Assembly: GCA_047602405.1 (NCBI GenBank)
Contig: JASGHJ010000002.1
Location: 896,001 to 960,000, forward strand
Direction of reading: 5' to 3'
Length of the DNA stretch: 64,000 nt
DNA from: Anaeromyxobacteraceae bacterium
Lineage (GTDB): Bacteria; Myxococcota; Myxococcia; Myxococcales; Anaeromyxobacteraceae
Shown here piece after piece: positions 9,794-25,017 of the stretch. The notes under the pieces are model-generated. The model saw only the letters and a program-made list of their open reading frames with translations, was not told where the DNA came from and did no database searches. Numbering within the stretch: position 1 is the stretch's first letter; every line of letters starts with the position of its first letter. A program made the translations under genes and the position numbers.

Positions 9794-9873
9794 GGGCCGG
9801 CGGCCCGTTACACTCAGTATCGTCCGCCGCCGCGCCCGTCCGGCGGTCCGTGGACTCGATCCCGTTCACCCCC

Positions 9874-9926
9874 CCGTTCGTCCCGAGCGTAGCCACCGCG
9901 CAGCGGTGGCGGAGACGAGGGACGGC
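9874..9926 (+). repeat. REP/MITE-like palindromic repeat, copy 1
   Basis: Matches the reverse complement of 30943-30995 at 50/53 nt; internal hairpin GCCACCGC-gca-GCGGTGGC. Confidence 0.85.
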
Positions 9927-9976
9927 CCTGGCACCTGCAGCCAGGCAACTTGAATTCGGCAGATTCTGAGGCGGCC

Positions 9977-10471
9977 GTGCACGAGCTCAAGTTCGACAGG
10001 TGGACCCTGCACGTCGACCCGGTCGCGACCGCGCTCGCCTACGAGAGCATCTCCCCCGGCCCGGAGGACTGCGGCTGCGACGAGTGCCGGAACTTCGCCG
10101 CGCAACGTGAGCGCATCTACCCACGCGAGTTCCTGGAGCTGTGCGCGCGACTCGGCATCCCGCCGGGCAAGGAGGGCGAGGTCTACGGGTGCGGGGGCGG
10201 GCAGGACGGGAGGCACTTCTACGGGGGCTGGTTTCACTTCGTGGGCAGCGTGGAGAACAGGGCTGAACTTGATTTCGGCAGGTCTCGGGGGAACGGGTCG
10301 CGTCACGTTCTTGCGATGGGACCTGCGCGCCTCCCGCGCCCCGCTCCGGAAGCCGAGGGTGACGATGGCGGCGCCGCCACTCAGCATCGGCGAGGCGTTG
10401 GGCGCGCGTGCGATGGACGTGTACTCGGGGTTCGTCTAGTCTGTAGCCCCCTGGACCGGGAGGCCGCGTGA
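9977..10471 (+). CDS. Hypothetical protein with CxCxxC motif (3' part uncertain)
   Basis: 'CGCDECRNF...LGI..GKEGE...YGGWFHFVG'; C-terminus degenerates after ~10280. Confidence 0.55.
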   Translation: MHELKFDRWTLHVDPVATALAYESISPGPEDCGCDECRNFAAQRERIYPREFLELCARLGIPPGKEGEVYGCGGGQDGRHFYGGWFHFVGSVENRAELDFGRSRGNGSRHVLAMGPARLPRPAPEAEGDDGGAATQHRRGVGRACDGRVLGVRLVCSPLDREAA

Positions 10472-11109
10472 CCTCGCCATCGAAGGCACTTCTCATCGCG
10501 TTCACCCTCGCCATCCCTCTCTCCGCGAGGCCGCTCTGGTACGCGCAGGGCGGGCCGGATGGACGGGTTCGGGCCTGTGCCCAGGCCGAGGACCGCATCG
10601 ACGAGGTGCTCGCGCACGCCAACCAGGGCTGGTCGAAGGCGAGCGGCGGGAAGGGCTCCGCGTGCGCCTACAGGGCCCAGGGCGGCGAGGCCCTCATCGG
10701 TTACATGATCGACTGCCGCGAAGGCGGCGAGCACATGTTCTTCCGCACCCGCGACGACTGCGAGCGGTTCAGGACGACGGTGAACTCCGGGGCCGCGATC
10801 GAGCCCGAGCAGTACGTGCCGAAGGGCACGAAGAACCGAGCGGGGTGGATGAGCGCGCTCACCGCCTGCGTTCACACGATGGCGAAGCCGGCCACCCTCG
10901 AGAAGGCCGGTCTCGGGAATGTGGTCGCGCTGTGCGAGTGCCAGGCGAAGAAGTGCGGCATGGAGGCCGAGGTCACCCCGGAGGTCGCGAGCGAGGCGTT
11001 CATGGCGTGCCTTCGCGAGGCACCGCCCACCGTCCGCGCGAACCTGATCCTGGGGTACCAGGGCGCGAAGGGCGACCCGCCGCCGGCGTCCTCGAAACCT
11101 TCCAGGTAG
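10468..11109 (+). CDS. Secreted Cys-rich hypothetical protein
   Basis: N-terminal signal peptide, nine Cys, GGAGG RBS, GTGA overlap with the previous ORF. Confidence 0.65.
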   Translation: MTSPSKALLIAFTLAIPLSARPLWYAQGGPDGRVRACAQAEDRIDEVLAHANQGWSKASGGKGSACAYRAQGGEALIGYMIDCREGGEHMFFRTRDDCERFRTTVNSGAAIEPEQYVPKGTKNRAGWMSALTACVHTMAKPATLEKAGLGNVVALCECQAKKCGMEAEVTPEVASEAFMACLREAPPTVRANLILGYQGAKGDPPPASSKPSR

Positions 11110-11181
11110 TGCCCTCAACCGCGCGCTCGACCGTGAAGGCCGCGACGATCCGGCTGCCGCCCGCGAGGTCGCGGCCGCCGA

Positions 11182-12798
11182 TCAGTTCCCCCAGCGCGCG
11201 TGGACCTGGGGACCGGAGACGCCTTCCTCGATCCACGCGACGACGGGCCGCCCGTCGGTGTCGAGCGCGAAGGCCGCCGGCCGGCCGGGGTCGGTCGTCG
11301 CGAACGAGATGGGGGCCATCTCCTGGACCCACGCGCTCCCGTCGAACGGGAGGCTCGCCGCCTGGAGGCGGTGGCCGGAGCCCGCGCCCGGCTCCTGCCA
11401 GAGGAGGTGGAGCACGCCCTTCGACGCGATCAGCCCCTTCGCGATCGCCCCCGGGGACGCGACGCCTGGCAGGGCCGTCCAGGTCTGGCCGGAGACGTTG
11501 GCGACCTCCACGACGAGCCCGGCCCCGGGGACGCCGCGGGCGCGGAACAGCCTCCAGTAGTCGCTGTCGGACGTGGCGAGCACGGCGCGGTCGCCGTCGG
11601 GCACCGGCACGGGCGAGCCGATCGGACGCCAGGACGCGCCGTTCCACGCGAGGGTGCGCACGGCCGACCCTCCGCCGGCGCCCGGCTCCACCCACGACAG
11701 CACGGGCACGCCGCCCAGCAGCTCGAAGGCGGGCCGCCCGATGGACGACGACGCGCACGCCAGCTCGGGAGTCTCCTGCCAGGTCGGCGTGGGGCTGTAC
11801 CCGATCGGCTTCCGCACGCCGACGTGGGTGCAGCGGGCAGCCCCGGAGTCCCTCCAGGCCAGGCCCGCGCCGTGGGCGTTCATCTCGAAGGAGACCTCGG
11901 CCACGCCCTCCGTCGCGACCTCCCACGAGCGCACGAAGGAGGGCACGGTTCCCTCCATCCGGAAGACGTGGATGGACTTGCCCTGCACCAGGGCGGCCCA
12001 GTCGTACGGGTCCAGCCGCGCGAAGGCGACCGCCGACTCCGGCCGGAGCGCGCTGGTCGAGGTGCAGGCGTCGTGGATCCGGATGCCTCCGCCGACCTCG
12101 TCGTCGCCGACGTGCCAGCGGCGGCCCGCCCGCTCCAGCGACAGCGTCCGGCCCGTCGGCGTGCCCGCCACCACCTGATCGATCGTCGAGGGGACGGCGA
12201 AGGTCCACTCCGCGCTCGTCGGGTTCCCGGCGAGGTCCTGGACCGTCAACCGGATCGACCCGGCCATCGGGATCGAGGGCGGGTCCAGCGCCACGAGCAA
12301 CCTCTGGTAGTCGGCGCTCGCGATCCGCAGGCCGTCGCCCTGGATCGAGATCGACTCGCGGTCGATGACCTCGTCGAAGTCCACCTCGATCGGACAACCC
12401 TGGAGGTGGTCCGCGCCCGGCAAGGGAGCGCGGCCCACGATCTTCGGCGGGGTCCGATCGACCGTGAAGGTCTCCTTCGCGAACCTCGTGCCCTCGCTGG
12501 TGGTCGCGCGGGCCTGCACCTCGTGGGCGCCCTCCGGGAACGCGGCCACGTCGAACCTGCAGACGCCGGAGCGGGGGGCCATGCAGGAGGGCAGCCCGTC
12601 GACGGTGAAGGTGACGTGGGTCACCTCGGGCGAGGCGTAGACCCCGACCTGCAGGGCATCCCGCACGTGGTCGTAGGGCTCGAACCTGATGGTGAACTCC
12701 TGCACCTGTCGTGGCCCGCCGCCGCCATCGTTCCGGCCGCAGCCCAGCACGAGAGCGAGTGCCCCGGCGACGATGATCGGCTTCGCGTGGCGGTTCAT
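11182..12798 (-). CDS. Lipoprotein with Ig-like domains and beta-rich C-terminal region
   Basis: MNRHAKPIIVAGALALVLGC lipobox; 'FTVDRTPP' and 'VQDLAGN...WTF' Big-type motifs. Confidence 0.7.
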   Translation of the reverse strand: MNRHAKPIIVAGALALVLGCGRNDGGGGPRQVQEFTIRFEPYDHVRDALQVGVYASPEVTHVTFTVDGLPSCMAPRSGVCRFDVAAFPEGAHEVQARATTSEGTRFAKETFTVDRTPPKIVGRAPLPGADHLQGCPIEVDFDEVIDRESISIQGDGLRIASADYQRLLVALDPPSIPMAGSIRLTVQDLAGNPTSAEWTFAVPSTIDQVVAGTPTGRTLSLERAGRRWHVGDDEVGGGIRIHDACTSTSALRPESAVAFARLDPYDWAALVQGKSIHVFRMEGTVPSFVRSWEVATEGVAEVSFEMNAHGAGLAWRDSGAARCTHVGVRKPIGYSPTPTWQETPELACASSSIGRPAFELLGGVPVLSWVEPGAGGGSAVRTLAWNGASWRPIGSPVPVPDGDRAVLATSDSDYWRLFRARGVPGAGLVVEVANVSGQTWTALPGVASPGAIAKGLIASKGVLHLLWQEPGAGSGHRLQAASLPFDGSAWVQEMAPISFATTDPGRPAAFALDTDGRPVVAWIEEGVSGPQVHARWGN

Positions 12799-12904
12799 GG
12801 CGGCCCCCCTGGCAACACCAGCAAGGCCCGCACTCGGAGTCAAGGAACATCGCCTGTGCCCGGTTGCCGCAGGTCCGGTCCGGTGGCTCGACCGGACCGA
12901 CGCA

Positions 12905-13009
12905 GAAAAGAGGAAGGCCGGGAGCCCACCCGCTCGTCGCGAGGGAACTCCCGGCCTTCCGGTTGCGCGCGGTAAGGGATTCGAACCCCTGGCCTTCGGC
13001 TCCGGAGGC
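12905..13009. repeat. att direct repeat (displaced 3' half of tRNA-Arg plus terminator)
   Basis: 102/105 identical to 24883-24987; identity ends just past the anticodon arm. Confidence 0.95.
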
Positions 13010-13363
13010 GGCCCTCGCATCGATGCAACCGTCCCAGCCGGTCGCAACCGTGCGGAACCTCTCGACCGTGGACGTGTGGTCGCCGTCCAAGGATCGCAAC
13101 CCAACCCAGGCACCGTGATCGGCTCTGCTGGACTCTCTGCTGGACCGAAACCGGGCCGAGGGCAGCTCGCGCTGGTGCCGGGGACCGTGGAGGGCCTGCT
13201 CACGGTCCGCGACGTGGCCGAGAGGTTGGCGGTCTCGACGGCGACGGTCTACGGGCTGGTCCGGCGGGGGCTCATCGCGAGCGTCCGGGTCTCGAACGCG
13301 ATCCGATTCGCGAGGAGCGATCTGGAGGAGATGATCGCGCGCGCGGGCTGGAGGCCCGACTGA
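13010..13363 (+). CDS. Displaced integrase C-terminal segment ending in an excisionase-like HTH (MerR/HTH_17) domain
   Basis: In frame with the integrase across the att core; 'LLTVRDVAERLAVSTATVYGLVRRGLIASVRVSNAIRFARSDL'. Alternative own start at GTG 13187. Confidence 0.8.
   Translation, partial: GPRIDATVPAGRNRAEPLDRGRVVAVQGSQPNPGTVIGSAGLSAGPKPGRGQLALVPGTVEGLLTVRDVAERLAVSTATVYGLVRRGLIASVRVSNAIRFARSDLEEMIARAGWRPD
13126..13147 (+). promoter_or_regulatory. Putative integrase arm-type binding site (tandem TGCTGGAC)
   Basis: TGCTGGACTCTCTGCTGGACCG, 20/22 identical to 24851-24872 at the other end of the element. Confidence 0.7.
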
Positions 13364-13424
13364 GCCGGGTTCAGATTGTCCGTCGTCAACTGAGCGTCCT
13401 GGCTCGGGGAGTACCGTATCCGCC

Positions 13425-14078
13425 ATGGGAAAGAAGAGGCGGCGGGAAGAGCCCTGGTACCGGAACAGTTGGCGGGTCGCGCTGCTGTCGTTGGCGGTTG
13501 CCGTCTTGGCATTGGCGGCCAGCATCGTGATCTACGTCCTCCAGTCCCGCGACACCGCGCACGTCGAGTTCGTCCCGGCCCGGACGCGGATCGTGCTGCA
13601 CGAGGGCGACGGTCAGCCGCACGTCGCGATCCTCTCGCTCTTGAGCAAGGGGAATCGAGGAACGGTCGTGCGCGAAATCCGACTGGTAGATTCCGGTGGC
13701 CAGACGATTCGGGGCTACCGCAGCGCTCCTGTTGGCGAGTGCGATCCGCTGCTGCCTATCACCCTGGGTGCTCCGGATGAGCGCGCGGTGACTCTCCGGA
13801 TCTCGCCGGCGGAGGAGGCGCGTCTGAACCGGATCGAGGTGGATGCCATCGAGGGCGCGAAGCCCATCGTGTGGCCCTACGTGCGGATCTCCGGCTTGGC
13901 GGAAGGGCACGGCGGGGCTTTCGGCACCCTCACGATCACGCCCGCCCCCGCCGCGACGGCTCCAGGCGAAACCGCCAAGGCCTCGGACGGTGTCGTGGAC
14001 GAACTGATCCCGGCGAAGAACAACGCCGCCAGGCCTGCCGTTCCTACCTCCGCGCCCCCCAGCAAGACGCCTCCGTGA
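13425..14078 (+). CDS. Membrane-anchored hypothetical protein (element cargo)
   Basis: Basic N-terminus, a single TM helix, then a beta-rich domain. Confidence 0.65.
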   Translation: MGKKRRREEPWYRNSWRVALLSLAVAVLALAASIVIYVLQSRDTAHVEFVPARTRIVLHEGDGQPHVAILSLLSKGNRGTVVREIRLVDSGGQTIRGYRSAPVGECDPLLPITLGAPDERAVTLRISPAEEARLNRIEVDAIEGAKPIVWPYVRISGLAEGHGGAFGTLTITPAPAATAPGETAKASDGVVDELIPAKNNAARPAVPTSAPPSKTPP

Positions 14079-14290
14079 GCCGCTGGAACCACGCGATCTG
14101 CTGGGACTGCTGGGAGCCGGTGATGAGCGCCGCCGGCTACCCGAACCGCGACCCGGTCCGGGTCATCGACTCCGAGCCGGTGCCCTGCTGCTGGTGCGGC
14201 ACCGAGACGGACGCGGGGATCTTCCTGCGGAAGACCCCCGAGGACCCGGGGCTCGCCTGTGCGTTTTCGACGTTCCACGAGGACGAGTAG
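14075..14290 (+). CDS. Small Cys-rich (Zn-finger-like) protein
   Basis: GTG overlaps the previous stop; 'HAICWDCW...CCWCG'. Confidence 0.55.
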   Translation: MSRWNHAICWDCWEPVMSAAGYPNRDPVRVIDSEPVPCCWCGTETDAGIFLRKTPEDPGLACAFSTFHEDE

Positions 14291-14414
14291 ACGGTTTCTC
14301 TCTCGGTCGAAACTCACCGCTTTTCGGGGGCTTCGTTCCTGACGGCGTCCCCCGGCGAGGTCCGTGAAGTAGCGGGCTGCCTGGGACATGTCAGCCAGAC
14401 CCTTACTCTCCGTT

Positions 14415-14443
14415 TTGCGATGTCGGCGAGGCGCGCCCATAAT
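14415..14443 (+). promoter_or_regulatory. Sigma70-like promoter for the PIN pair
   Basis: TTGCGA-17 nt-CATAAT, 9 nt upstream of ATG 14453 (near-leaderless). Confidence 0.6.
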
Positions 14444-14452
14444 GCCCTGGTC

Positions 14453-15190
14453 ATGCAGGGCGAGATCCTCATCGAGGTCGCCGGGCCAGGCGTACGACCG
14501 CGCACGGTGGCAGCGCGCGAGTTGCTCGCGCTGGCGTCGGCCTACCTCGACGCCATCGCCGGGCTCGTCAGGGACGAGCGGGATCACGAGCTGACCATCC
14601 AGGGAATCCGGATCGTCGCGAAGTGCGCCGCCGTCATGGTGCACGCCGACCGGGGCGATCTTGCTGCGGAAGCCGGCGCGCAGGCCACACGGTATCTCAC
14701 CAACCTGGACGACGCGCCTCACGGCGTCCGCAAGCACCTCGGGCGGCTCGCAGCCGCCATCGGGGAGCTGCCGCCCCAGTACACGCCCTCGGCGCGCTTC
14801 CGCACCTCGAAGGGCGAGCAGGTCTTCAAGCTGGAGGTGGTCAGGCCGGAGGTGACGCTCCCGGCGTTCGAGGTCGTCGTGCTCCGGGCCGAGCCGATCA
14901 AGGCCGGCGGGAACGAGCCCGAGGCTCGGTTTGAAGCGCGCGGGGAGGGGCGGTTCACGCTCAAGGCCCCAGGGGATTGGGACACCATCAGGAAGGTGGG
15001 AGCCTCCCTTCACAAGCCGTGTGACATCGTGGCGAAGGTTCGCCGCAACGCGGAGGGCGTCATCGAGGGCGGCGAGATCCTGGCCGTCGAGATCCCCGAC
15101 GCGGACTCGCGCGGCGCGTGGGAGAAGTGGTACGCGGCGAACGCCAGGAACGTGTCGTTCGAGTCCGAGCAGGAGGGCTCTGACGAGTGA
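14453..15190 (+). CDS. Hypothetical protein, partner of the PIN nuclease
   Basis: 245-aa ORF with a GTGA overlap into the PIN gene. Confidence 0.7.
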   Translation: MQGEILIEVAGPGVRPRTVAARELLALASAYLDAIAGLVRDERDHELTIQGIRIVAKCAAVMVHADRGDLAAEAGAQATRYLTNLDDAPHGVRKHLGRLAAAIGELPPQYTPSARFRTSKGEQVFKLEVVRPEVTLPAFEVVVLRAEPIKAGGNEPEARFEARGEGRFTLKAPGDWDTIRKVGASLHKPCDIVAKVRRNAEGVIEGGEILAVEIPDADSRGAWEKWYAANARNVSFESEQEGSDE

Positions 15191-15768
15191 GCGGCCCCGT
15201 CCAGACCCCCACGTTCGTCATGGAAGACGCCAAGCTTCCCCGCATGGCCGCCGTCGATGCCGGGGTCCTGTTCAGGGCGCTGGAGAAGAAGAAGAAAGAC
15301 CGCTTCGCCCAGGCGTGCAGGGACTTCTGGGTCGCGATGCTGAAGGACCCGAACCGGCGGATCATCATCCCCGCGCCGGCGTTCGCGGAGTACCTGCGCG
15401 GCGGCGCGTCCGCGCTGCCGAGCACGGCGCAGGTGTACGTGGTGCCGTTCGACGCGAGGTGCGCCGAGATCATGGCGGAGTCGCTGCCGCAGCACATCCT
15501 CTCGGTCCAGATCGCCGCGTTCAAGGCGCAGTACGGGAAGGACCGCGAGGGGAATGAGGCGCCCGGCTCGTTCATCAAGTACGACGCCATGATCGCCGTC
15601 TGCGCGAAGAGGTGGGGCGCCGACCGACTCGTGTCCATCGATACCGACCTGAAGAAGCTCGCCGCGAAGCTGCCGCTGGACTGCCAGACCCCCGACTACT
15701 TCTACGGCGACCAGGTGCACATCGACGTGGCGAAGCTCCGCGCGGTCGGGTCGTCCGAAGAGAAGTAG
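15187..15768 (+). CDS. PIN-domain (VapC-like) ribonuclease
   Basis: Acidic PIN residues in 'AAVDAGVL', 'PAFAEYL', 'KYDAMIAVCA' and 'LVSIDTDL'. Confidence 0.8.
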   Translation: MSGPVQTPTFVMEDAKLPRMAAVDAGVLFRALEKKKKDRFAQACRDFWVAMLKDPNRRIIIPAPAFAEYLRGGASALPSTAQVYVVPFDARCAEIMAESLPQHILSVQIAAFKAQYGKDREGNEAPGSFIKYDAMIAVCAKRWGADRLVSIDTDLKKLAAKLPLDCQTPDYFYGDQVHIDVAKLRAVGSSEEK

Positions 15769-15860
15769 CTCGCCAGTAAAGGCGACGCGCCCCCCCGGCA
15801 GGCCCTCGGACTCCGGGAGGAAGTCGGAGCCGGCACCCGATGCGCGGACGAGTACCTTGT

Positions 15861-16274
15861 TCACCGAGTGGTGCGGGCCGCCTCTTCAAGCTGATCGCGG
15901 CTGACGAAGGGCCAGACCCCATGGTCGCCCATCTCGAACCGAGGGGAAAGGCAGCATATGACTCTCCCCACGAACGGAACAGACGCGAGCGGAGGCCACC
16001 GATACGACAGATCGGACCTCAAGAACGTGATGCAGCGGCGGAATCCGTCCGACGCCTCAACTGACAGCGCGAAGCGCCCTTCGAGGCGATGCTCGTGCAG
16101 GTCGTCGTAGTAGTGCCAGACCCAGGCGTACACGGCGTTCACCGCCCGATCCTTGGACCTTGGGTAAGCCTTCTCGAACTCGTCGTTCGTGATCCCGCAC
16201 GCCGCGAGCTTTCCGATGAGTTCAGCTGCCCTGTCCCGCGCCGATTCGTCTCGAACGTCCACGACCGGGACCAT
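15861..16274 (-). CDS. Hypothetical protein
   Basis: 'GITNDEFE...WHYYDDLHEHRL...RCITFLRSDLSYRWP...WPF' is protein-like; lower-GC codons. Confidence 0.65.
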   Translation of the reverse strand: MVPVVDVRDESARDRAAELIGKLAACGITNDEFEKAYPRSKDRAVNAVYAWVWHYYDDLHEHRLEGRFALSVEASDGFRRCITFLRSDLSYRWPPLASVPFVGRVICCLSPRFEMGDHGVWPFVSRDQLEEAARTTR

Positions 16275-16333
16275 ACCGCGCGCACGCTCCGCTCGCGACG
16301 TTGGCAGGACGGGATGCCGAACGCCATGCCGGC

Positions 16334-16555
16334 CTACTCCCCGGGCCAGCGCGCCGCAGTCGAGCTGCACTCCGAGAAGATCACCCGCACGGCAACGCTG
16401 GGCAGGCCCGCCGCTTTCGCATCGGCCAGGAGCTGCTCGCCCTTCGCGATCTCGTCGGCGGGCGTCGTCGGGAGCTGCACCACGACGAGGCACCCCTGGG
16501 GGCTCAACGCGAACTCCAGCGCCTTGATCCGGCTCCCGTGGGACTGGAAGGCCAT
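16334..16555 (-). CDS. Small hypothetical protein
   Basis: ATG 3 nt after the previous stop in a coupled minus-strand gene string. Confidence 0.45.
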   Translation of the reverse strand: MAFQSHGSRIKALEFALSPQGCLVVVQLPTTPADEIAKGEQLLADAKAAGLPSVAVRVIFSECSSTAARWPGE

Positions 16556-16558
16556 GGG

Positions 16559-16882
16559 CTAGTGCGAGGCCGTGCGGTTGCGGGCCATGGCCTCTTCGAG
16601 CTTTACGATCCGGCCCTCGTGGTCTGCGTCGCGCAGCACCACGGCGAGCTTCGCGAGGAGGTCGCCCTTCGCGCGCGCGAGCGCGATCCGGAGCGTGGGC
16701 GACAGCTCGGCCGCCGGGATCTCGCACAGCTCGCGGTAGGCCGCCCCGAACGCGCGCCGGATGCCGGCCGGCGAGGAGGTGCGCGGGCCGCGCGGCTTCG
16801 CTCTCCAGTCGTCGCCCTCGGTCGTCGCCGGCGTCGTCTCGGCGGTGCTCTCGCTCTCGTTGTCCATCTCGTCTCCGTTCAT
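16559..16882 (-). CDS. Small helical protein (possible small-terminase-like)
   Basis: ATGA overlap; C-terminal 'EGRIVKLEEAM' coiled coil. Confidence 0.5.
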   Translation of the reverse strand: MNGDEMDNESESTAETTPATTEGDDWRAKPRGPRTSSPAGIRRAFGAAYRELCEIPAAELSPTLRIALARAKGDLLAKLAVVLRDADHEGRIVKLEEAMARNRTASH

Positions 16883-17169
16883 CTACGCCCCCGGTGCGCG
16901 CGCTCCCACGCCACGACTGCCCTCCGCTCGTCCTCGGCCCATCGCATCTCTTCCTCGTCCAGCAGCTCCGCGATCAGCTCCTCGCGGATCCCGTCGCGGC
17001 GTGCCTGGCGCTCGCGGCGCACCCGGTCCTGCGCCCGCCACATGGCGCGTACCAGGGGATCACGCAGCAGGCCGTCCCCCTCGGCGTCGTACCCCGGGGG
17101 CGCCGGGGCAATGATGCTGTGGTCGGCGCGCCGGATGAACGCGATCCGGCGGCGCGGCGGCCAGGGCAT
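16879..17169 (-). CDS. Hypothetical protein
   Basis: Start abuts the upstream stop (TAG-ATG); part of a coupled operon. Confidence 0.5.
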   Translation of the reverse strand: MPWPPRRRIAFIRRADHSIIAPAPPGYDAEGDGLLRDPLVRAMWRAQDRVRRERQARRDGIREELIAELLDEEEMRWAEDERRAVVAWERAHRGRR

Positions 17170-17499
17170 CTAGTCCTCCTCGGCCTCGGGCTCGGGGTCG
17201 AAGCCGCGCCCCACGGACACAACCTCGTGCAGGTTCCGGCGCACGTAGTCGTCGCGCGCGGCGTCATCGGCCAGGCTCGATAGGAACCGATCCTCCTTGA
17301 TCGCCAGGGCGACGAGGATTGCGGCCCCGCCGAGCGAGCGGTCCACCGAGGCGTCCGCGAAGCGATGGGCGAGGGCCCGCGCCTCGTCATCGGGAAGCTT
17401 CTCGACGCGCTCCGCGAACTGATCGAGTTCATGGGCGGCACGGTCGGAAAGATTCAGGTCCCTGGCCGCCTCCCTCGCGATCTTGGTGGCGTAGCTCAT
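17170..17499 (-). CDS. Hypothetical protein
   Basis: AAGGAGGT RBS, ATGA overlap, acidic tail. Confidence 0.65.
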   Translation of the reverse strand: MSYATKIAREAARDLNLSDRAAHELDQFAERVEKLPDDEARALAHRFADASVDRSLGGAAILVALAIKEDRFLSSLADDAARDDYVRRNLHEVVSVGRGFDPEPEAEED

Positions 17500-18362
17500 C
17501 CCTGCACCTCCTTCGTGGTCGTCGTGAACTTCGACTCGGCCAAGACCGCGGCGAAGAGCAGCTCGCTGCGCTTGAAGACCGACGCGCCGTCCAGGAGGAG
17601 GCCTAGGGCCTGCGCCACCAGGGCGGAACTGTTCGCGCCGATGCCGCCGCCGTTCATCCTGTCCCGGAGGTATAGGTGATCGAGCGCGCTCAAGAGCGCG
17701 GCCTTGCTCTTCGCGAGCCGCGCGGGGTCGTTCACCGCCGCGCGCACCCGGGCGGCGTCGCGGGAGTCGGCCTCGCGGGTAGCCTGTTCGAGTTCAGCGC
17801 GAACCCGCTCAAGCGCGACTTCCAGCGCGTCAGCCTCGGCCAGCGCGGTCGCCTCGATCTCGCTCGCCCGCGCCAGGAGGTCCCGCCGCTCGACGAAGAG
17901 CCGATCCGCGTCCGGCCCGGGGTCGAGGGCGCGGCCGATCTGCGCCTCGCGGTGGTGGTCCCGCGCGCTCGACGCGGCGGCGGCCAGCTCCGGGAGCCGA
18001 GCCCGCGCCGCCTCCAGCTCCCCGAAGATCCGGACGTGCTTCGCGCGGAGGTTCACGATCCGCAGGTCGTCCTCGTGGCGGCGGAGAGGACTCGCGGACC
18101 AGTCGCTTCCGTTCGGGCTGGCCCCCGTGGGCGTGCCGGCCGGCCTCGGTTCGCCCCCCTGGGTGGGCCCTGCCGGCGGGGGGTCCGACGCGGCGGCCGG
18201 CGCCGTGCCCGCCGCTGCCCCTCCGCCCGGCGCGGCGGGCTCGGTCGCCTGGCCGGCCTGCTCCAGCTCGGCGGCGCGGTCGGGCAGCGAGCCTGCCGCC
18301 TCGGTCGGCGGGATGCCGCCTCGACGGAAGGGAAACGCCAGGGCCTTGCGCGTGGTCGCCAT
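17496..18362 (-). CDS. Coiled-coil hypothetical protein with Pro/Ala-rich N-terminus
   Basis: 288-aa ORF with a long heptad-like Ala/Glu/Arg helix. Confidence 0.65.
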   Translation of the reverse strand: MATTRKALAFPFRRGGIPPTEAAGSLPDRAAELEQAGQATEPAAPGGGAAAGTAPAAASDPPPAGPTQGGEPRPAGTPTGASPNGSDWSASPLRRHEDDLRIVNLRAKHVRIFGELEAARARLPELAAAASSARDHHREAQIGRALDPGPDADRLFVERRDLLARASEIEATALAEADALEVALERVRAELEQATREADSRDAARVRAAVNDPARLAKSKAALLSALDHLYLRDRMNGGGIGANSSALVAQALGLLLDGASVFKRSELLFAAVLAESKFTTTTKEVQG

Positions 18363-18539
18363 CTACGGGCCCGCCCGGCGCTTGGCCCGGGGCGACGGCG
18401 CGCATGCGTCGGGCCGCTGCGCCTGGTCGGCGGTGAGCGTCCGGATCTCGATGCCGGCCGACCCGTAGGTGATCGGGGGTCGAGGCGCCGCGCCGGTGCC
18501 GGCGTCGCGCAACGGGTTCTTCTTCGTGCTTTTCGCCAT
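18363..18539 (-). CDS. Small hypothetical protein (58 aa), not in the ORF track
   Basis: GGAGGAG RBS then MAKSTKKNPLRDAG...; stop abuts the next ATG. Confidence 0.55.
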   Translation of the reverse strand: MAKSTKKNPLRDAGTGAAPRPPITYGSAGIEIRTLTADQAQRPDACAPSPRAKRRAGP

Positions 18540-18624
18540 CGTCGGCTCCTCCTGGTGGCCGGCGACGGCCGGCCGATGCTCCCAGAAGGTGCCCGGCGGA
18601 CACTCGCAACGTGCAGAGAAGATG

Positions 18625-18978
18625 CTAGGCGGAGCCGGGCCGGCTCCGGTCGCGCCAGCGCCGCACCGTCTGCGGGTGGACGTTGAACCGGCGCCCCGCG
18701 ATGCCCAACGCGCGCTCGACGCCCACGCCCTCGGCCAGCTTCTGCTCCACGAGCCGCACGGCCTCGACCTCGCGGATCTCGTTGTCGGGGCCGGCGTGCG
18801 CGCGAACGTAGCGCAACAGGACGCCCTCGGGACTGTCGGGGTGCGGGTTCTTCGAGGCGAGCACCGCCAAGGCGGCGACGGCGACCGTTCGAGGAGGAGG
18901 CGGATCGGGGCGGCGCGCGCGCGGGGGCCGCGCCCTGATCACGCCCATCGCCCCCCTCGCCGCCGCCGTCGAGCCCAC
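18625..18978 (-). CDS. Protein with C-terminal HTH
   Basis: 'VERALGIAGRRFNVHPQTVRRWR' HTH-like pattern; start uncertain. Confidence 0.5.
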   Translation of the reverse strand: MGSTAAARGAMGVIRARPPRARRPDPPPPRTVAVAALAVLASKNPHPDSPEGVLLRYVRAHAGPDNEIREVEAVRLVEQKLAEGVGVERALGIAGRRFNVHPQTVRRWRDRSRPGSA

Positions 18979-19084
18979 GCGCGCGCCCCGCCCCCCTCAC
19001 ACCCTACCCGTCGTCCACGACGTGTCGGCGCCCCGTGGTGTCCCGGAAGCGCGCTTCCCGGCCGCCCCTGGCTGACCCCCGCCG

Positions 19085-19738
19085 CTACGGCGTTTCGGCC
19101 CGTATCTCGGGATCAACTTTTCGGGACGGGTCGAGCGGGAGCACGGGCGCGCCCACCAGGACCCGGGCCACCGTCGAGCGCGGCACCTTCAGGGCCACCG
19201 CGATCTTCCGGATGCTCTCCCCGGCGTCGCGGCGCGCGACCACCTCGGACCGCTGCATAAAGGAGAGGCGCGGCGGCCGACCCCATCGCTGACCCTCACC
19301 CTCCATCCGCTCGCGGGCGGCGGCGATGTTGTCGTTGATGGCCTGACGCTGCACGCGCGCGCCCAGCGCGAGGCCGAAGATGATGCACTCCGAGGCGAGG
19401 TCGTCGGTGCCCACCGGCTTGATCACCAGGTTGTCGCCCGGGATGTGCAGCTCGCAGCCCGCCTGCCGGATCTCGTCTACGATCTTGTACGTGTCCGCGA
19501 CGCCGCTCCTCGTGAGCCGGTCGATCTTGAAGACGTAGAGCTTGCGGATCTCCCCGACCCGGATCGCGGCGCGGACCCGGTCCAGCTCGGGCCTGGCGAG
19601 CTTCTTCCCGGACCGCTTCTCGCAGTACCAGGTGACGACCGTGTCGCCCCTGGCGGTGGCCGCGCGCTGGATGGCGTCGCGCTGGGTGGCCAAGTCCTGC
19701 GACTTCGAGCTGACGCGGGTGTAGGCGGCGACGTTCAC
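19085..19738 (-). CDS. Serine recombinase (resolvase/invertase) with C-terminal HTH
   Basis: 'AAYTRVSS..QDLATQ', 'SGK...RPEL', 'KIDRLTRS', 'WGRPP' and 'GESIRKIAVALKVPRSTVAR'. Confidence 0.92.
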   Translation of the reverse strand: MNVAAYTRVSSKSQDLATQRDAIQRAATARGDTVVTWYCEKRSGKKLARPELDRVRAAIRVGEIRKLYVFKIDRLTRSGVADTYKIVDEIRQAGCELHIPGDNLVIKPVGTDDLASECIIFGLALGARVQRQAINDNIAAARERMEGEGQRWGRPPRLSFMQRSEVVARRDAGESIRKIAVALKVPRSTVARVLVGAPVLPLDPSRKVDPEIRAETP

Positions 19739-19989
19739 GGCTTCCTCCTGGTCTTGGCCCAGCGGTCGAGCGTGGCGCGGGCGCCATCGGGATCGCGACG
19801 GGCGGCCTCGCGGACGGCCACCGGCACGCGGACGGTCAACATCACCATGGCCGCGCCCGGCGACCCTCGCAGGGCCGTCAGAGGCCCGCCCCGGGCCCGC
19901 TGGCGGTAGTGCGCCACGCACAGCCCGAGCGCCCGCGCCGGCCTGGTACAGCCGGGGCCGGTGCAGCGTCGTGAGGTCGAGCGGGGCAT
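19735..19989 (-). CDS. Small Zn-finger-like phage-type protein
   Basis: 'CTGPGC...GLCVAHY' motif; TGA overlaps the resolvase GTG. Confidence 0.6.
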   Translation of the reverse strand: MPRSTSRRCTGPGCTRPARALGLCVAHYRQRARGGPLTALRGSPGAAMVMLTVRVPVAVREAARRDPDGARATLDRWAKTRRKP

Positions 19990-20066
19990 CGACGGGGATC
20001 TGTGAACGGATCGCTAGCGTATGTCAACAGCGTGATCGACGCGGTCGAGGTCCCTGCCCCCGGGCG

Positions 20067-20412
20067 GTGACCGTCACCAATGCCGCACGAGACGCGTCAC
20101 CGGTCTCCAGCGACCAGCGTGGCGAGCACGACGTGGAGGGCCTCCGACACCTGGGCTGCCCGTGATCTCGCCCGGTTGCCGGCGACGTTGACGCCCGCCG
20201 CGACGTAGACGGAGCGCCGCGAGACCGTGCGTAGACGGCCGCGACGCGCTCGACCGCGGCTCTGGCGGCGCCGCCGGCTCGTTCCGAGGGCCTCGGCGGC
20301 GTTCGCGGTTCGCGTGACCCGAGTGACGGATCCGGCGCGTTCCGGCAACTCTGCCTGAAAGCTTCTCCAGGAGGAGAATGTCGAGGGTGACGGGATCTGT
20401 CACGTCAGTCAC
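20067..20412. repeat. GTGAC/GTCAC repeat cluster, candidate origin or res site
   Basis: Eight copies at 20067, 20073, 20096, 20314, 20323, 20387, 20399 and 20408 in the divergent intergenic region. Confidence 0.55.
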
Positions 20413-20555
20413 CCTTCCGCCGGGGCTCCGACGACAGGGCAGCGGGGTAGGTTCGGAATCGGCCGGGGCTAGGGTTCGCGGCCCAAACGCGCGCCCCCAG
20501 CGCGCCCGCCCCGTGCCTGTCCACCCTGGGGAAACGTCAGCGCCTGGGGGGCGCC

Positions 20556-21218
20556 GTGCCCAAGCCGCCGGTCGTGTACCGACTCGACATGGTCGAGCGG
20601 GGCTTCCCAACCGCGGACGAGGGCCTCGCAAGGCTCCTGCCGCGGACCTACTTCCCCGAGGCCGCGAAGCTCGCGGGCCTGTTCGGGTTCGACCCGGGGT
20701 TTCCGATCCGTGAACGGCTCGATGAGGCCGCGGGGCTGTACCTCTCGACCCACGCCGCGCGAAGCCCATCCCCCAACGAGCAGCGGAGGCGGCTCGACCT
20801 CGTGGATCGTGCGGCGCGCGCCGTGGCCCGTGGCCACGCCGCTCGTGGAGAGGCGCTCGCCCGCCTACTGGAGGCGGGCGGGATGGCAGGCCTGCCGTTT
20901 CTGGCTCCCGAGATCGAGCTGCGCCGCGCCTCCGGGCTGCCCTTCGCGTTCGGGCGGGCGGAGGCCGAGGCCGTCGTGGCGCAGGTCCGGGCGGCGCGTC
21001 GATGGCTGCCGACTCGGCGCCCGCCCGTCTCGGGCGACAGCGACCTCCGCATCTTCGTGGTGAACATCGCGAAGATCTACCAGGAGGGAACCGGGAAGAA
21101 GCCGGGCCGCGGACGGGAAGGGCCCTTCCCGCGATTCCTCTCGCTCGTCTGCGCGGAGATCGGCATCAAGATCAGCCAGGAAGCCCTCGTGAAGCTGCAC
21201 CGACGCTGGGGAAAATAG
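20556..21218 (+). CDS. Hypothetical protein heading the replication operon
   Basis: 220-aa ORF with C-terminal 'IAKIYQEGTGKKPGRGREGPFPRFL'. Confidence 0.6.
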   Translation: MPKPPVVYRLDMVERGFPTADEGLARLLPRTYFPEAAKLAGLFGFDPGFPIRERLDEAAGLYLSTHAARSPSPNEQRRRLDLVDRAARAVARGHAARGEALARLLEAGGMAGLPFLAPEIELRRASGLPFAFGRAEAEAVVAQVRAARRWLPTRRPPVSGDSDLRIFVVNIAKIYQEGTGKKPGRGREGPFPRFLSLVCAEIGIKISQEALVKLHRRWGK

Positions 21219-21270
21219 ACCCGAGGGTTGGTCCCAGACCGGCAGTGTTGCGTGCGCTACCAGGTAGCGC

Positions 21271-21468
21271 ATGAACCGTCTGACACGTCGTAGCAAGCTT
21301 CGCGATGCACGGCTGGCTCAAGGCCTGAGCCTGGAACGTGCCGCGGTGGCCGCCGGGATTTCCGTGTGCTGGTTGCGGCAGTTGGAGCGCGACCCCTCCC
21401 TCCTGAGCGTGCGGGTGGCGTCGCGGCTGTTGCCGGTGCTCGGCATCGCCCCCGAGGTGACGCCGTGA
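21271..21468 (+). CDS. XRE/Cro-like HTH regulator
   Basis: 'LRDARLAQGLSLERAAVAAGISVCWLRQLER'. Confidence 0.8.
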   Translation: MNRLTRRSKLRDARLAQGLSLERAAVAAGISVCWLRQLERDPSLLSVRVASRLLPVLGIAPEVTP

Positions 21469-21629
21469 CCGAGAACCCGACCGCCCAGGACGAGGGCGAG
21501 GCGCTGCGGCGGCTCCGCGAGGTGATCGAGCGGGTCCGTCGAGGACCTGCTGCGCCGATGCCGGTTCCCGGTCCGAGCGCCGAGCCCCCACGCCGCCACT
21601 GGACCGATCGCGACGAGGTCGAACCGTGA
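21465..21629 (+). CDS. Small hypothetical protein
   Basis: GAGGTG RBS and GTGA overlaps at both ends. Confidence 0.5.
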   Translation: MTENPTAQDEGEALRRLREVIERVRRGPAAPMPVPGPSAEPPRRHWTDRDEVEP

Positions 21630-23087
21630 CCCACGATCAAAGCCCTGGGCCCGGGTTTCGGGCCGAGAGCGAGAGCCCGGAGTTCGAGGCCGAGGCAGCG
21701 GTCGAATACCGAGTCGCGGGTACCGACGAGATCGACAGGCCCCGTTCCGACGCTGGCAACGCAGAGCGTCTGGTCCGGTTGCACGGGCACGAGATCCGGT
21801 ACGTCCACAGGTGGAATCGCTGGCTGCTGTGGGACGGGGCCCGTTGGGCCCTAGACGAGCGCGGAGACGTGGTGCGGCTCGCGATGAGCAGCGCGCGCGA
21901 CCTCATGCTCATCGCGGGGACGATGCGTCCCGGGGCGGACAAGAACGCACTTGTGGCGCACGCGCTGCGAGCCGAGTCACGCTCGGGAATCGACAACGCG
22001 CTCGCCATCGCGCGCAACCTCTCCCAGGTGGCGCTCACCCCCAGTGACCTCGACCGGAACCCGGATCTCCTCAACGTGGCGAACGGGACCCTGGATCTGC
22101 GCAGCGGGAAGCTCAGGCCCCACGACCGCGGAGATAACCTGACCAAGGTCTGCGCAGCGCCCTACGTCCCCGGGGCGTCGTGCCCGACCTGGGACGCCTT
22201 CCTGGCCCGCGTACTGCCCGACACCGAGGTGCGGGCATACCTCAAGCGCGCGGTGGGCTACAGCCTGACGGGCCGCGTGGAGGAGCACGTCCTCCACTTT
22301 CTTCACGGTCGCGGTGCGAACGGAAAGACGACCTTCCTTGAGATCATCAGGTTCCTGTTGGGCGAGGGGGAGTACGCGAAGACGGCGGGCCCCAGCCTGC
22401 TCCTCGCAGCGAGACAAGAGCGGCATGCCGTCGAGATCGCGGACCTCCAGGGTGCCCGCGTCGTGACGACCGTCGAGATGGGCGAGGGGCAGCACTGGGA
22501 CGAGCCGAAGGTGAAGTGGCTAACGGGCGGCGACACCCTCAAGGCGCGGTTCATGCACGAGAACCCGTTCGCCTTCGTGCCCACCCACAAGATTCTGGAT
22601 CGCCGGGAACCACAAGCCGAGGGTGAGCGGCACCGACAACGGCTTCTGGCGGCGGGTCCACATGATCCTGTTCCCGGTAGAGATCCCGGAGGCCGAGAGG
22701 GATCACGAGCTGTTGGCGAAGCTCCGGAACGAGATGACGGGAATCCTGCGATGGGCCGTCGAGGGCTGCCAAGAGTGGCGGCAGATCGGCCTCGCCCCGC
22801 CCCCCGCCGTGCTCGCCGCGGTGAAGGAGTACAGGAGCGACGAGGACGTGGTCGGCGCCTTCCTGGACGAGTGCTGCACCCTCGCACCCGGCGGGCGAGT
22901 CGATTCGAAGGGCCTTAGCGATGAGTTCCGGAGGTGGGCCGATGCGAACGGAGAGAGGCGGCTTTCCACGAAGGCCCTCGGTGGGAACCTGGAAGACCGG
23001 GGCTACCAGAGGAAGGCGTCGGGAGGCCGCCGCTGGATCCTCGGGCTGGAACTGCGCCAGGTGCAGGACGGAGAGGAGGCGGGGTGA
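21626..23087 (+). CDS. P4/D5-family SF3 helicase (primase C-terminal part); +1 frameshift at ~22593
   Basis: D5_N 'DAGNAERL..LHG...WLLWDGARW', Walker A 'GRGANGKTT', 'KWLTGGDTLKARFM'. After the shift 'IWIAGNHKP...DNGFWRR'. Confidence 0.88.
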
Positions 23088-23296
23088 CGAATGAACCGAT
23101 GTGGACCGCGGCGGACGTGGCGTCCTTCCTGCGGGTCTCCCGGAGCTGGGTGTACCTGCACGCCGAGGCCGGCGACCTGCCGTCCGTGAAGATCGGCGGC
23201 CTCCGGCGATTCTTGCCCGATCAGATCCGGGCGTACGCAGGCGGCGAGGCCGCGCCCAGGACGACGATCGTGGCGATCTCACCCCGGGGCCGTTGA
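23084..23296 (+). CDS. Excisionase/AlpA-like HTH_17 protein
   Basis: GAGGAGG RBS; 'WTAADVASFLRVSRSWVY..AEAGDLPSVKIGGLRRF'. Confidence 0.85.
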   Translation: MTNEPMWTAADVASFLRVSRSWVYLHAEAGDLPSVKIGGLRRFLPDQIRAYAGGEAAPRTTIVAISPRGR

Positions 23297-23321
23297 TCCC
23301 CTTCGCATATGGGCGGACAAT
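23293..23321 (+). promoter_or_regulatory. Sigma70-like promoter for the RHH-integrase transcript
   Basis: TTGATC-17 nt-GACAAT, 7 nt before ATG 23329 (leaderless geometry). Confidence 0.5.
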
Positions 23322-23328
23322 GGCAGAC

Positions 23329-23514
23329 ATGAGCAAAGATGCCCGGCTTACCTTTCGGATGTCCCAGCAGGTGCGCGACGCGCTGGAGCGCGCCGCCCAG
23401 GCGGAGCGCCGCAAGACCTCCGACCTCGCGACGATGATCCTGGAGGACTGGTTGGAGTCAAAGGGGCACCTCTCGAAGCTCGGCGCGCCCGCGAAGAAGA
23501 AGGGCAGGGGATAG
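23329..23514 (+). CDS. Ribbon-helix-helix (Arc/CopG-like) DNA-binding protein
   Basis: 'ARLTFRMSQQVRDALERAAQAERRKTSDLATMILEDWL'. Confidence 0.75.
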   Translation: MSKDARLTFRMSQQVRDALERAAQAERRKTSDLATMILEDWLESKGHLSKLGAPAKKKGRG

Positions 23515-23517
23515 GCC

Positions 23518-25011
23518 ATGGCGAGCGTATTCCGTCGCGTGCGGTGGGTCGCCCTGGGCGGCGAGCGGGTATCGGAGCAGCGGGCCGTGCAGCTCCAGGC
23601 CGAAGGCGTCGCGGTCGAGCGGCGGGAGGGGAAGGTCTGGTACCTCCGATACCGGGCCGAGGGCGGCCGGATGGTCGATCAGCCGTCGCGGGCGAGGACC
23701 AAGCGCGAGGCGGAGAAGCTCGCAGTGGACCTGGAGCGCCGAGCCGAGCGTGTCCGGCTCGGGCTGGAGGTCGGGCTGCCCGAGGACGGCGGCGGCCCGC
23801 TGGCTGAGCTGCTCACCTGGTGGCTCAAGACGCACTCGGCCAGGTCGCCGTCGCACGCCAGGAACGAGAGCGCGATCCGCGCACACCTCCTGAGCAGCGG
23901 CCTCGCCGCCCTGCCGCTCTCGGCGGTGACCTCCGACCGGATCGAGCTGTTCCTCCAGGCGAAGGACGCCGAGCTGGGGCCGCAGAGCGTGAACCACCTG
24001 CGGGGCTACCTCTCGCGCGCGTTCAACGCCGCGAGGAAGGTCAAGCGGTGGGCGGGAAGCAACCCGGTCGTCGCCGTGGAGAAGCGGAAGGTCCCGAAGC
24101 GCATCCCAGACTACCTCCGGGCCAGCGAGGTGCCCGCCGTCATGGCCGCGCTCGCGCCGAAGTTCCGGCCGTTGTTCGCCGCCGCGCTCTACACCGGGAT
24201 GAGGAAGGGCGAGCTGCTGGGGCTGCGGAAGGCGTCCGTGGACTTCGAGGCCGGGGTGATCACGGTGGAGAGGTCCTACGACCGGGACACCACGAAGGGC
24301 GGTCACGCCGACGCCATCCCCATCGCGGCCGAGCTGGAGCCCTTCCTGCGGGCGGCGGTGGAGGCGTCGGGCTCGGGCCTCGTCTTCCCGGGCAGGGGCG
24401 GGGAGATGCTCCCGGAGGCGACGAAGCTGGAGGGCGTCCTGCGGCGCGCGCTCGGCCGCGCCGACATCGTGGAGGGCTACCGCCACGTCTGCCGCGCCCG
24501 GGTGGACGGTCGCGGGAAGCGGGCAAGGTCCGCCCCCCGCTGCGAGCACGTCGAGGTCGCGACGGACCGCGCGCTCCGGCGCTGCCCTCTCCACGGCGAC
24601 GCGCTGTGGCCGGTCGCCCAGGTGCGCAAGCTCCGCTTCCACGATCTGCGGCACACGACGGCGACGCTGCTCCTCAAGGCCGGCGTCCCGCTGGCGACGG
24701 TGCAGAAGATCCTGCGCCACACGGACCCGAAGATCACCGCGAAGGTCTACGGGCACCTCGACCAGGACGACATGCGGGCCGGGCTCGACAAGCTCGCCTT
24801 TGACCTTCCGACCGTCGCGCCGCCCGAGGCCGTCGCGGCCGGCGCGGTCGTGCTGGACTCCGTGCTGGACCGGGCAGGATCGGAAAAGAGGAAGGCCGGG
24901 AGCCCGCCCGCACATCGCGAGGGAACTCCCGGCCTTCCGGTTGCGCGCGGTAAGGGATTCGAACCCCTGGCCTTCGGCTCCGGAGGCCGACGCTCTATCC
25001 AGCTGAGCTAA
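23518..25011 (+). CDS. int: Tyrosine integrase whose 3' end runs through the att site, antisense to tRNA-Arg
   Basis: 'TGMRKGEL' (R), 'TTKG' (K), 'FHDLRHT' (HxxR), 'ILRH' and 'VYGH' (Y); Cys/His insert before box II. Confidence 0.95.
   Translation: MASVFRRVRWVALGGERVSEQRAVQLQAEGVAVERREGKVWYLRYRAEGGRMVDQPSRARTKREAEKLAVDLERRAERVRLGLEVGLPEDGGGPLAELLTWWLKTHSARSPSHARNESAIRAHLLSSGLAALPLSAVTSDRIELFLQAKDAELGPQSVNHLRGYLSRAFNAARKVKRWAGSNPVVAVEKRKVPKRIPDYLRASEVPAVMAALAPKFRPLFAAALYTGMRKGELLGLRKASVDFEAGVITVERSYDRDTTKGGHADAIPIAAELEPFLRAAVEASGSGLVFPGRGGEMLPEATKLEGVLRRALGRADIVEGYRHVCRARVDGRGKRARSAPRCEHVEVATDRALRRCPLHGDALWPVAQVRKLRFHDLRHTTATLLLKAGVPLATVQKILRHTDPKITAKVYGHLDQDDMRAGLDKLAFDLPTVAPPEAVAAGAVVLDSVLDRAGSEKRKAGSPPAHREGTPGLPVARGKGFEPLAFGSGGRRSIQLS
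24851..24872 (+). promoter_or_regulatory. Putative integrase arm-type binding site
   Basis: TGCTGGACTCCGTGCTGGACCG, near-identical to 13126-13147. Confidence 0.7.
24883..24938 (-). terminator. Terminator downstream of tRNA-Arg
   Basis: 13-bp stem GGAAGGCCGGGAG/CTCCCGGCCTTCC followed by TCTTTTC on the minus strand; also present in the left att copy. Confidence 0.75.
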
Positions 25012-25017
25012 CCGCGC
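24944..25017 (-). tRNA. tRNA-Arg (anticodon CCG), CCA not encoded
   Basis: GCGCGGT/ACCGCGC acceptor stem, TAGCTCAGCTGGATAGAGC D arm, CT-CCG-GA anticodon loop, GGTTCGAATCC T arm. Confidence 0.96.

Follow-up and report, generated by a model that had tools for sequence, protein, structure and literature searches.

What kind of mobile element sits in the tRNA-Arg(CCG) gene of an Anaeromyxobacteraceae bacterium, and how does it move? We analysed a stretch of 64,000 nucleotides from this genome (assembly GCA_047602405.1, contig JASGHJ010000002.1, positions 896,001 to 960,000), here called the window; coordinates are window positions unless a locus or contig is named. A sequence-only reading had proposed a phage-satellite-like element of about 12 kb in this tRNA gene, either a helper-dependent satellite or an integrative replicon. 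The element is real. It measures 11,978 bp and is flanked by two copies of the 3' end of tRNA-Arg(CCG). Its integrase gene (int) spans the attachment site (att), and the modelled circle encodes a longer integrase C terminus than the integrated form. In this att and int architecture, taken alone, we have high confidence. The island as a whole is probably, though far from securely, a variant of the phage-inducible chromosomal islands (PICIs) with a self-truncating integrase of the Mx9 type. The following features define the ends of the element.

12886-13009, no strand: left att copy, a tRNA 3' fragment plus a GC-rich hairpin, with the perfect core at 12937-13009 (repeat comparison)
13010-13363, + strand: detached 3' end of int, 117 codons, a linker and a helix-turn-helix (HTH) domain of the HTH_17 family, in frame with int across att (E 1.2e-12)
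23518-25011, + strand: tyrosine integrase of the Mx9 type, reading across att into the antisense tRNA (Pfam, PHROGs, frame check)
24864-24987, no strand: right att copy, within int (repeat comparison)
24943-25017, - strand: tRNA-Arg(CCG), the intact target (ARAGORN)

ARAGORN finds this single tRNA in the window, and its 3' half is the target of the island. The two att copies form a direct repeat of 124 nt with 92% identity and a spacing of 11,978 bp. The inner 73 nt are a perfect core that takes in the 3' 45 nt of the tRNA gene. In the closest relative found, genome G060, alignment of the flanks at 92 to 96% runs up to position 9794 and resumes from 24927, with about 430 bp in between. Therefore, the site is empty in G060, and the size and insertion site given in the sequence-only reading are confirmed. 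The GC content of the element, about 0.67 to 0.77 against 0.74 for the genome, is only slightly lower. Because the G060 alignment ends ahead of the left att, positions 9795-12885 are a separate accessory stretch. These 3.1 kb lie outside the att repeat, are not in G060, and encode an Ig-like lipoprotein and a Cys-rich secreted protein. A sister island that once sat here may have left them as a scar, since the hairpin of the left att resembles the element's copy and not that of G060.

In the integrated state, int crosses the right att copy, enters the antisense strand of tRNA-Arg(CCG), and encodes 497 aa. The att core is thus part of the int coding sequence. When the element ends are joined in silico, the frame is extended by the 117 codons of 13010-13363, giving 607 aa. 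A 7-aa tail is replaced by a 117-aa tail that ends in HTH_17. The catalytic motifs of Int, and those of a resolvase described below, are intact in translation. The far end of the element had been read as cargo; this holds for the genes that follow, which include a PIN-domain protein, and fails for the first 354 nt, which are the detached int 3' end.

The same arrangement recurs in related loci, whose tRNA targets include Arg, Gly, Pro, and Asp (L and G numbers are our handles for loci and genomes; G000 is this genome, with contigs C1 and C2). Where a tRNA is nearby, int runs into the adjacent antisense tRNA without a stop in 28 of 34 loci. Those integrase homologs and loci that bear names indicate Myxococcota and, probably, Anaeromyxobacteraceae. 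We examined 61 related loci for att: both copies were present in 16 (14 distinct, duplicates counted once), the fetched stretch held no second copy in 35, and the other 10 lacked an adjacent antisense tRNA. The model of the HTH tail drew on Mx9 Int and on eight full-length homologs that occur naturally. After modelled excision, an in-frame HTH tail was found in 12 of the 14 distinct complete islands, and the other two have the tail in another frame. All five further complete islands have it in frame, which gives 17 of 19 overall. Eight of the top 120 Int homologs carry int, the antisense-tRNA peptide, the linker, and PF12728 (the HTH_17-type tail) in a single chain. These chains indicate that joined full-length Int forms occur in nature, as circles or tandem junctions.

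Three loci extend this picture. A natural full-length integrase of 561 aa with the HTH at its end (L227:2813-4498) lies at the far end of a capsid-encoding island of 12.3 kb, and it apparently marks a tandem junction, at which attP is restored within the chromosome. In G000, a tRNA-Pro island of 15.8 kb (C2:366916-382751, L318) has att and the in-frame HTH tail. A tRNA-Gly island (C1:514865-528000, L319) keeps the HTH tail, and an unrelated 367-aa integrase adjoins the tRNA; this pairing suggests integrase replacement or nesting.

The att-in-int layout itself is already known, and the switch is known in kind from phages Mx8 and Mx9. As described for Mx8, attP lies within int, integration makes a new int 3' end and changes specificity, and the two Int forms differ in recombination activity; a similar principle is given for Mx9 (PMC6070905). 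The layout is also remarked on for Mx8 and SSV in Islander (PMC4383910). According to the title of a study cited in PMC11610982, a C-terminal segment of Mx8 Int is dispensable for excision. Our element shares with these phages a tyrosine integrase, a tRNA target, and an att inside int that yields a new 3' end on integration (PMC6070905). It carries this integrase on a 12-kb island, in contrast to a 50-kb phage. The best-scoring phage match of its Int is Mx9 Int (35% over the catalytic region, E 1e-31), and Mx8 Int is not among the 15 best phage matches listed. Both Mx9 Int and the element's Int have the HTH_17 tail, whereas Mx8 Int does not. Our literature searches, which did not cover the Mx9 primary paper, found no paper naming this tail.

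The integrase is uninformative on a satellite lifestyle, because many sister islands hold only xis, int, and cargo. Pfam and PHROGs were run on 23 main open reading frames (ORFs). PHROGs were also run on 53 further alternative or overlapping ORFs, 51 of them in the element, which brings the element ORFs scanned to 74. The 53-ORF scan gave nothing new beyond overlaps of already named genes. We found no capsid, portal, large terminase (TerL), tail, or relaxase gene in the 23 main ORFs or, with PHROGs, in the 51 further ones. For relaxases and type IV secretion systems (T4SS), the 23 main ORFs gave no Pfam match above the cut-off, with a weak VirB8 match (E 0.063) on a membrane-anchored cargo ORF. 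The sequence-only reading had recognised none of these genes either. The rightward module comprises the following genes, followed by int.

20556-21218, + strand: 220-aa hypothetical protein, no Pfam or PHROG match
21271-21468, + strand: Cro/XRE-like HTH regulator (HTH_31 E 6.7e-7; also HTH_3)
21465-21629, + strand: 54-aa coupled ORF (ORF coordinates)
21626-23087, + strand: P4/D5 superfamily 3 (SF3) helicase with D5_N, without a primase domain, one frameshift near 22593 (Pfam, PHROGs)
23084-23296, + strand: Xis-like HTH_17 protein (HTH_17 E 4e-10; phrog_66)
23308-23514, + strand: ribbon-helix-helix (RHH)/Arc-like regulator (Pfam, PHROGs)

This order is the one first read from the sequence, and Pfam and PHROGs confirm it, with the correction that the helicase is frameshifted and has no primase. 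The helicase lacks a primase domain because D5_N starts already at residue 46; it matches primase PHROGs over their C-terminal half only. The two halves split by the frameshift match the same profiles end to end (phrog_6088 positions 327-606, then 607-765). An int/alpA/primase core in the strict sense, as had been invoked for this element, is therefore not there: we found no AlpA match and no primase domain. Divergent from this module is a leftward string, separated from it by a cluster of repeats.

20067-20412, no strand: eight GTSAC repeats between the divergent operons (motif count)
19735-19989, - strand: 84-aa ORF, Cys/His zinc-finger motif near its N terminus
19085-19738, - strand: small serine resolvase/invertase with HTH_7 (Pfam E 5e-26)
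18625-18978, - strand: 117-aa ORF with a weak C-terminal HTH (HTH_23 E 0.003)
18363-18539, - strand: 58-aa ORF, doubtful (ORF list)
17496-18362, - strand: predicted coiled-coil hairpin protein, longest ORF 288 aa, C-terminal 200 aa helical (structure prediction)
17170-17499, - strand: 109-aa ORF, no Pfam or PHROG match
16879-17169, - strand: 96-aa ORF, no Pfam or PHROG match
16559-16882, - strand: 107-aa two-helix protein, candidate small terminase (family profile, AlphaFold)
16334-16555, - strand: 73-aa ORF with an N-terminal 'SRIKALE' motif
15861-16331, - strand: ORF of about 137 to 156 aa, no family match

The leftward genes abut or overlap by 0 to 4 nt at the five junctions checked, and a gene with Resolvase and HTH_7 domains is present; the divergent, tightly coupled string of small genes with a resolvase had been described correctly. 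Between the operons, GTSAC occurs 8 times in 370 nt against 0.7 expected, and 0 of 16,639 genome windows reach 8, with motif and window chosen post hoc. Per 400 nt, L190 has 10 copies and L227 has 7; ten other elements have 2 to 5. This cluster is a candidate origin or set of iterons. The resolvase had been counted as a mismatch with known satellite families. It is indeed absent from the PICI layout, yet it is not unique, because a 56% identical one is found in L194, another 10-kb tRNA island. As a family marker it was rejected: two further homologs, in L320 and L321, are not part of islands of this kind, and neither a tRNA nor another element gene accompanies them.

The 288-aa ORF is predicted as a long helical hairpin by a single-sequence model. 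Its neighbours in the Atlas are unnamed bacterial and phage proteins (0.93), and the nearest named cluster (0.90) carries a Psu label on 16% of its members, which is a lead only. Pfam, PHROGs, and Foldseek, the last with the single-sequence model, do not support a Psu identity. At the far end of the element is the cargo.

13425-14078, + strand: cargo, 217 aa, N-terminal hydrophobic segment (VirB8 match only, E 0.063)
14075-14290, + strand: cargo, 71 aa, two CxxC-like motifs (ORF reading)
14420-15190, + strand: 256-aa cargo protein, its gene coupled to that of the PIN protein, without a match in Pfam, PHROGs, or PADLOC
15187-15768, + strand: PIN-domain protein (PF01850 E 1.8e-5), no PADLOC match

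PADLOC, run on 12 ORFs, gave no match. The PIN protein is possible toxin-antitoxin or defence cargo, and the 256-aa protein may be its antitoxin partner.

The 107-aa protein is the candidate small terminase (TerS) or packaging adaptor. It has one close homolog. A pair of genes, in which a two-helix protein ending in 'E.R...LE' is followed by a small ORF starting with 'R...LE', is also present in L190, L204, and L229; the small partner ORFs in other islands start like the 'SRIKALE' ORF of our element. A profile built from 12 homologs without the window protein ranks the 107-aa protein first of 51,815 genome ORFs (E 2e-4), although the window protein had been part of the model that yielded 9 of the 12. 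Family members occur in 4 of 19 complete islands, in L190 as well, and in 17 of 363 genomes. Of 1.84 billion clusters, 2,688 match the family profile at E <= 0.001, and the family has no Pfam or PHROG annotation. In one prophage, the family gene lies directly upstream of TerL and a portal-like gene, which is the TerS position. The loci that have the family gene and no TerL would fit a PICI-style TerS without TerL, on the strength of this one positional case. AlphaFold predicts a short helix and a long helix (pLDDT 80). TerS proteins have an oligomerising hairpin, and the predicted fold is compatible with it and with many other things. Atlas neighbours of the family include virus-rich clusters (score 0.92, a lead only). 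An IMG/VR search with a close TerS-like alignment returned nothing, and three of four other IMG/VR matches were dropped because they covered coiled-coil ends only. No annotated phage matched any family member, and in Pfam and PHROGs the window protein matches no TerS profile. An N-terminal Cys/His finger is a motif of small-terminase-like proteins; one family member (L331:1279-1722) has such a finger ahead of the two-helix core.

The 19 complete related islands measure 5.3 to 18.3 kb, a range biased to small sizes by the 18 to 20 kb or so fetched per locus. Four of them occupy the same tRNA-Arg(CCG) (8.7, 8.4, 7.8, and 5.8 kb). L018, at the same tRNA, has a primase gene followed by xis, RHH, and int. 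L227, with the same integrase family, encodes a primase, TerS, and a capsid-protease. Islands found through the helicase include L191, which encodes a capsid-protease, and L194. The latter (L194:3954-13912) is a 10-kb tRNA-Glu island with TerL, a resolvase, and a primase, and no capsid gene among the ORFs scanned. Since related islands hold a primase, TerS, capsid-protease, TerL, or the shared resolvase, the neighbourhood of our element is that of PICI-like elements. Of these islands, L190 (2340-16800), a tRNA-Asp island 14.4 kb long, has the helicase closest to ours (about 50%). It also carries the TerS-like pair, coiled-coil ORFs, an 827-aa ORF without annotation, and a second tyrosine recombinase. 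G000 itself has a more canonical PICI-like island of 13.75 kb in tRNA-Pro(GGG) with a different integrase (C2:3155229-3168981, L316). It has a TerL match (phrog_2 E 3.5e-28) and coiled-coil ORFs, and by eye AlpA-like and 861-aa primase-like ORFs.

How close is the element to the known satellite classes? By the definitions of SatelliteFinder (PMC10085698, section 17), it is at best a PICI of type C, which the authors of that tool call ambiguous. The tally is an integrase, an uncertain regulator (an HTH_17 Xis and a Cro-like HTH, with no AlpA match), one half of a primase-replicase, a candidate TerS that goes unrecognised, and no gene for a capsid. Like a PICI, it has an integrase, HTH regulators, a replication gene, accessory cargo, no tail, holin, portal, or lysis genes, no TerL to go with its candidate TerS, and a comparable size (the PICI median is given as 9.5 kb in PMC10085698). 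Unlike a PICI, it has no match to a primase domain, to AlpA, or to the capsid morphogenesis protein (which is absent in SaPI variants) in the Pfam and PHROG scans, and its TerS is not recognised by profiles. Furthermore, its putative packaging string diverges from the replication module instead of lying downstream of it, and it has an extra resolvase and an att inside int. With P4-like satellites it shares the D5/P4-family helicase and a size of 11 to 12 kb; it has no primase domain and no Pfam or PHROG match to Psu, Sid, Delta, or Ash. The capsid, portal, TerL, and head-tail genes of capsid-forming PICIs (cf-PICIs) were not found in it, whereas the sister islands L227 and L191 encode a capsid-protease and L227 also TerS. 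The element thus falls outside the P4-like and cf-PICI definitions. PICMIs (minimalist islands of the chromosome that a phage can induce) are minimal satellites without capsid-remodelling genes, like our element; those described are from Vibrionaceae, whereas ours is from Myxococcota and has a tRNA target and a longer operon of unknown genes (PMC10803314).

The D5 helicase, Cro, Xis, and coupled small genes are arranged as in sister islands with TerS, TerL, or capsid genes. We somewhat favour a PICI-like satellite variant, and helper-dependent packaging, which we infer, is plausible to a similar degree. For it to function as a PICI, the TerS reading would have to be right. The earlier choice of a satellite or integrative replicon stands in that the element is integrative and satellite-sized, with 19 small relatives, several of which have PICI or cf-PICI parts.

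Several results weigh against a satellite. No packaging gene was identified by homology. Among 150 members of the 107-aa family, one matches a TerS PHROG, weakly (E 0.0018), and no member has a relevant Pfam or PDB sequence match. Three TerL queries (tblastn) found no TerL in 21 other loci; nearly all of these had been picked because they carry the family gene, and several spanned just about 3 kb. The helicase is frameshifted, and five primase N-terminal queries found no trace of a hidden primase in the element. The 288-aa protein has no homolog but itself; its model gave only generic coiled coils in Foldseek, none at E <= 0.001 and with Psu not among the listed rows. An IMG/VR query with int returned distant integrases and no close relative. 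The many sister islands with only xis, int, and cargo belong here too, as they leave the integrase uninformative. No helper prophage was seen in G000 in a non-exhaustive search, in which an HK97 portal was not found and other portal families were not searched; the one strong TerL match in this genome is the one in L316.

A first rival reading is a mini-plasmid or integrative element that is no satellite. It would excise, persist by means of its resolvase and PIN module, and move by generalised transduction or uptake, and its leftward genes would have no role in packaging. The resolvase and the PIN gene pair are plasmid-like, no structural gene was identified, and in several islands, two of them in G000, the same integrase family carries restriction, toxin-antitoxin, or insertion sequence (IS) cargo without phage genes. 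Against this stand the gene layout shared with sister islands that have TerS, TerL, or capsid genes, the TerS position of the 107-aa family in one prophage, and, as a lead only, its virus-rich Atlas neighbours. We regard such an element as rather unlikely.

Distinctly unlikely, in our view, is a decayed satellite, formerly mobile and now without primase, TerL, or capsid, in which the helicase is broken and only int and att are usable. The frameshift near 22593 would agree with decay, as would the primase gene of L018, which has the same order of helicase position, xis, RHH, and int, and the TerL (L194) or capsid (L191, L227) of sister islands. However, the att core is perfect, and the catalytic motifs of Int and the resolvase are intact. 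Short-frame D5 helicases also recur, with open frames of 476 to 612 aa in G090, G091, G325, and G349 against 750 to 973 in others. As a control for the frameshift we used 28 host proteins from relatives; 20 answered, giving 9 distinct loci at >=60% identity. Two of these 9 host loci, a small sample, are likewise frameshift-split in this assembly. One indel in 12 kb is therefore expected from error, and the helicase frameshift may be a sequencing or assembly error; we rejected it as proof of decay. A look for public sequencing runs of the element listed none, which counts neither way. Two host genes on C2 of G000, near 897052 and 901711, are frameshift-split relative to their G060 orthologs, which suggests indel errors in the assembly.

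The sequence-only reading had named as its own refutation the case that deletion reduced a full prophage or conjugative element to this remnant. That case is very improbable and already largely refuted. In its favour, the integrase is related to that of the true phage Mx9, and 10 loci without a second att within about 18 kb upstream may be larger elements. Against it, both att ends are intact here, no structural or conjugation gene fragment was found in the 74 element ORFs, and the 19 complete relatives measure 5.3 to 18.3 kb, four of them at the same tRNA.

For the PICI-like satellite variant, we propose that the element excises, replicates, and is packaged by a helper phage. By analogy with Mx8 and Mx9, integration would be the work of the 607-aa Int encoded by the circle, and excision that of the truncated 497-aa Int together with Xis. 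Because the Int form differs between the circle and the integrated state, recombination would set its own direction. More tentatively, the GTSAC cluster may be where the helicase loads, with a primase of the host or helper doing the priming; the resolvase may resolve circle multimers; and the leftward operon may divert the packaging of the helper, the 107-aa protein acting as small terminase.

In our literature searches, no study of phage satellites from Myxococcota came up, and neither the myxobacterial island family nor the large candidate TerS family was found in print. The main text of the SatelliteFinder paper does not mention Myxococcota (PMC10085698). Yet members of the integrase family turn up in 141 of 363 genomes from the order. 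It is possible, and we say so tentatively, that Myxococcota have an undescribed class of helper-dependent satellites. These would use an Mx9-type Int that sheds and regains an Xis-like DNA-binding domain at every recombination, and for packaging a two-helix TerS whose family of thousands of clusters goes unrecognised by Pfam and PHROGs; this element would be a primase-less member that borrows its priming from the host or helper. Should the 107-aa family be small terminases, thousands of unannotated proteins would gain a label, and satellites overlooked by current profiles would come to light. The integrase family offers new tRNA-site integration tools for myxobacteria, and its HTH tail gives a concrete and testable basis for the old observation in Mx8 and Mx9 that integration alters the behaviour of the integrase.

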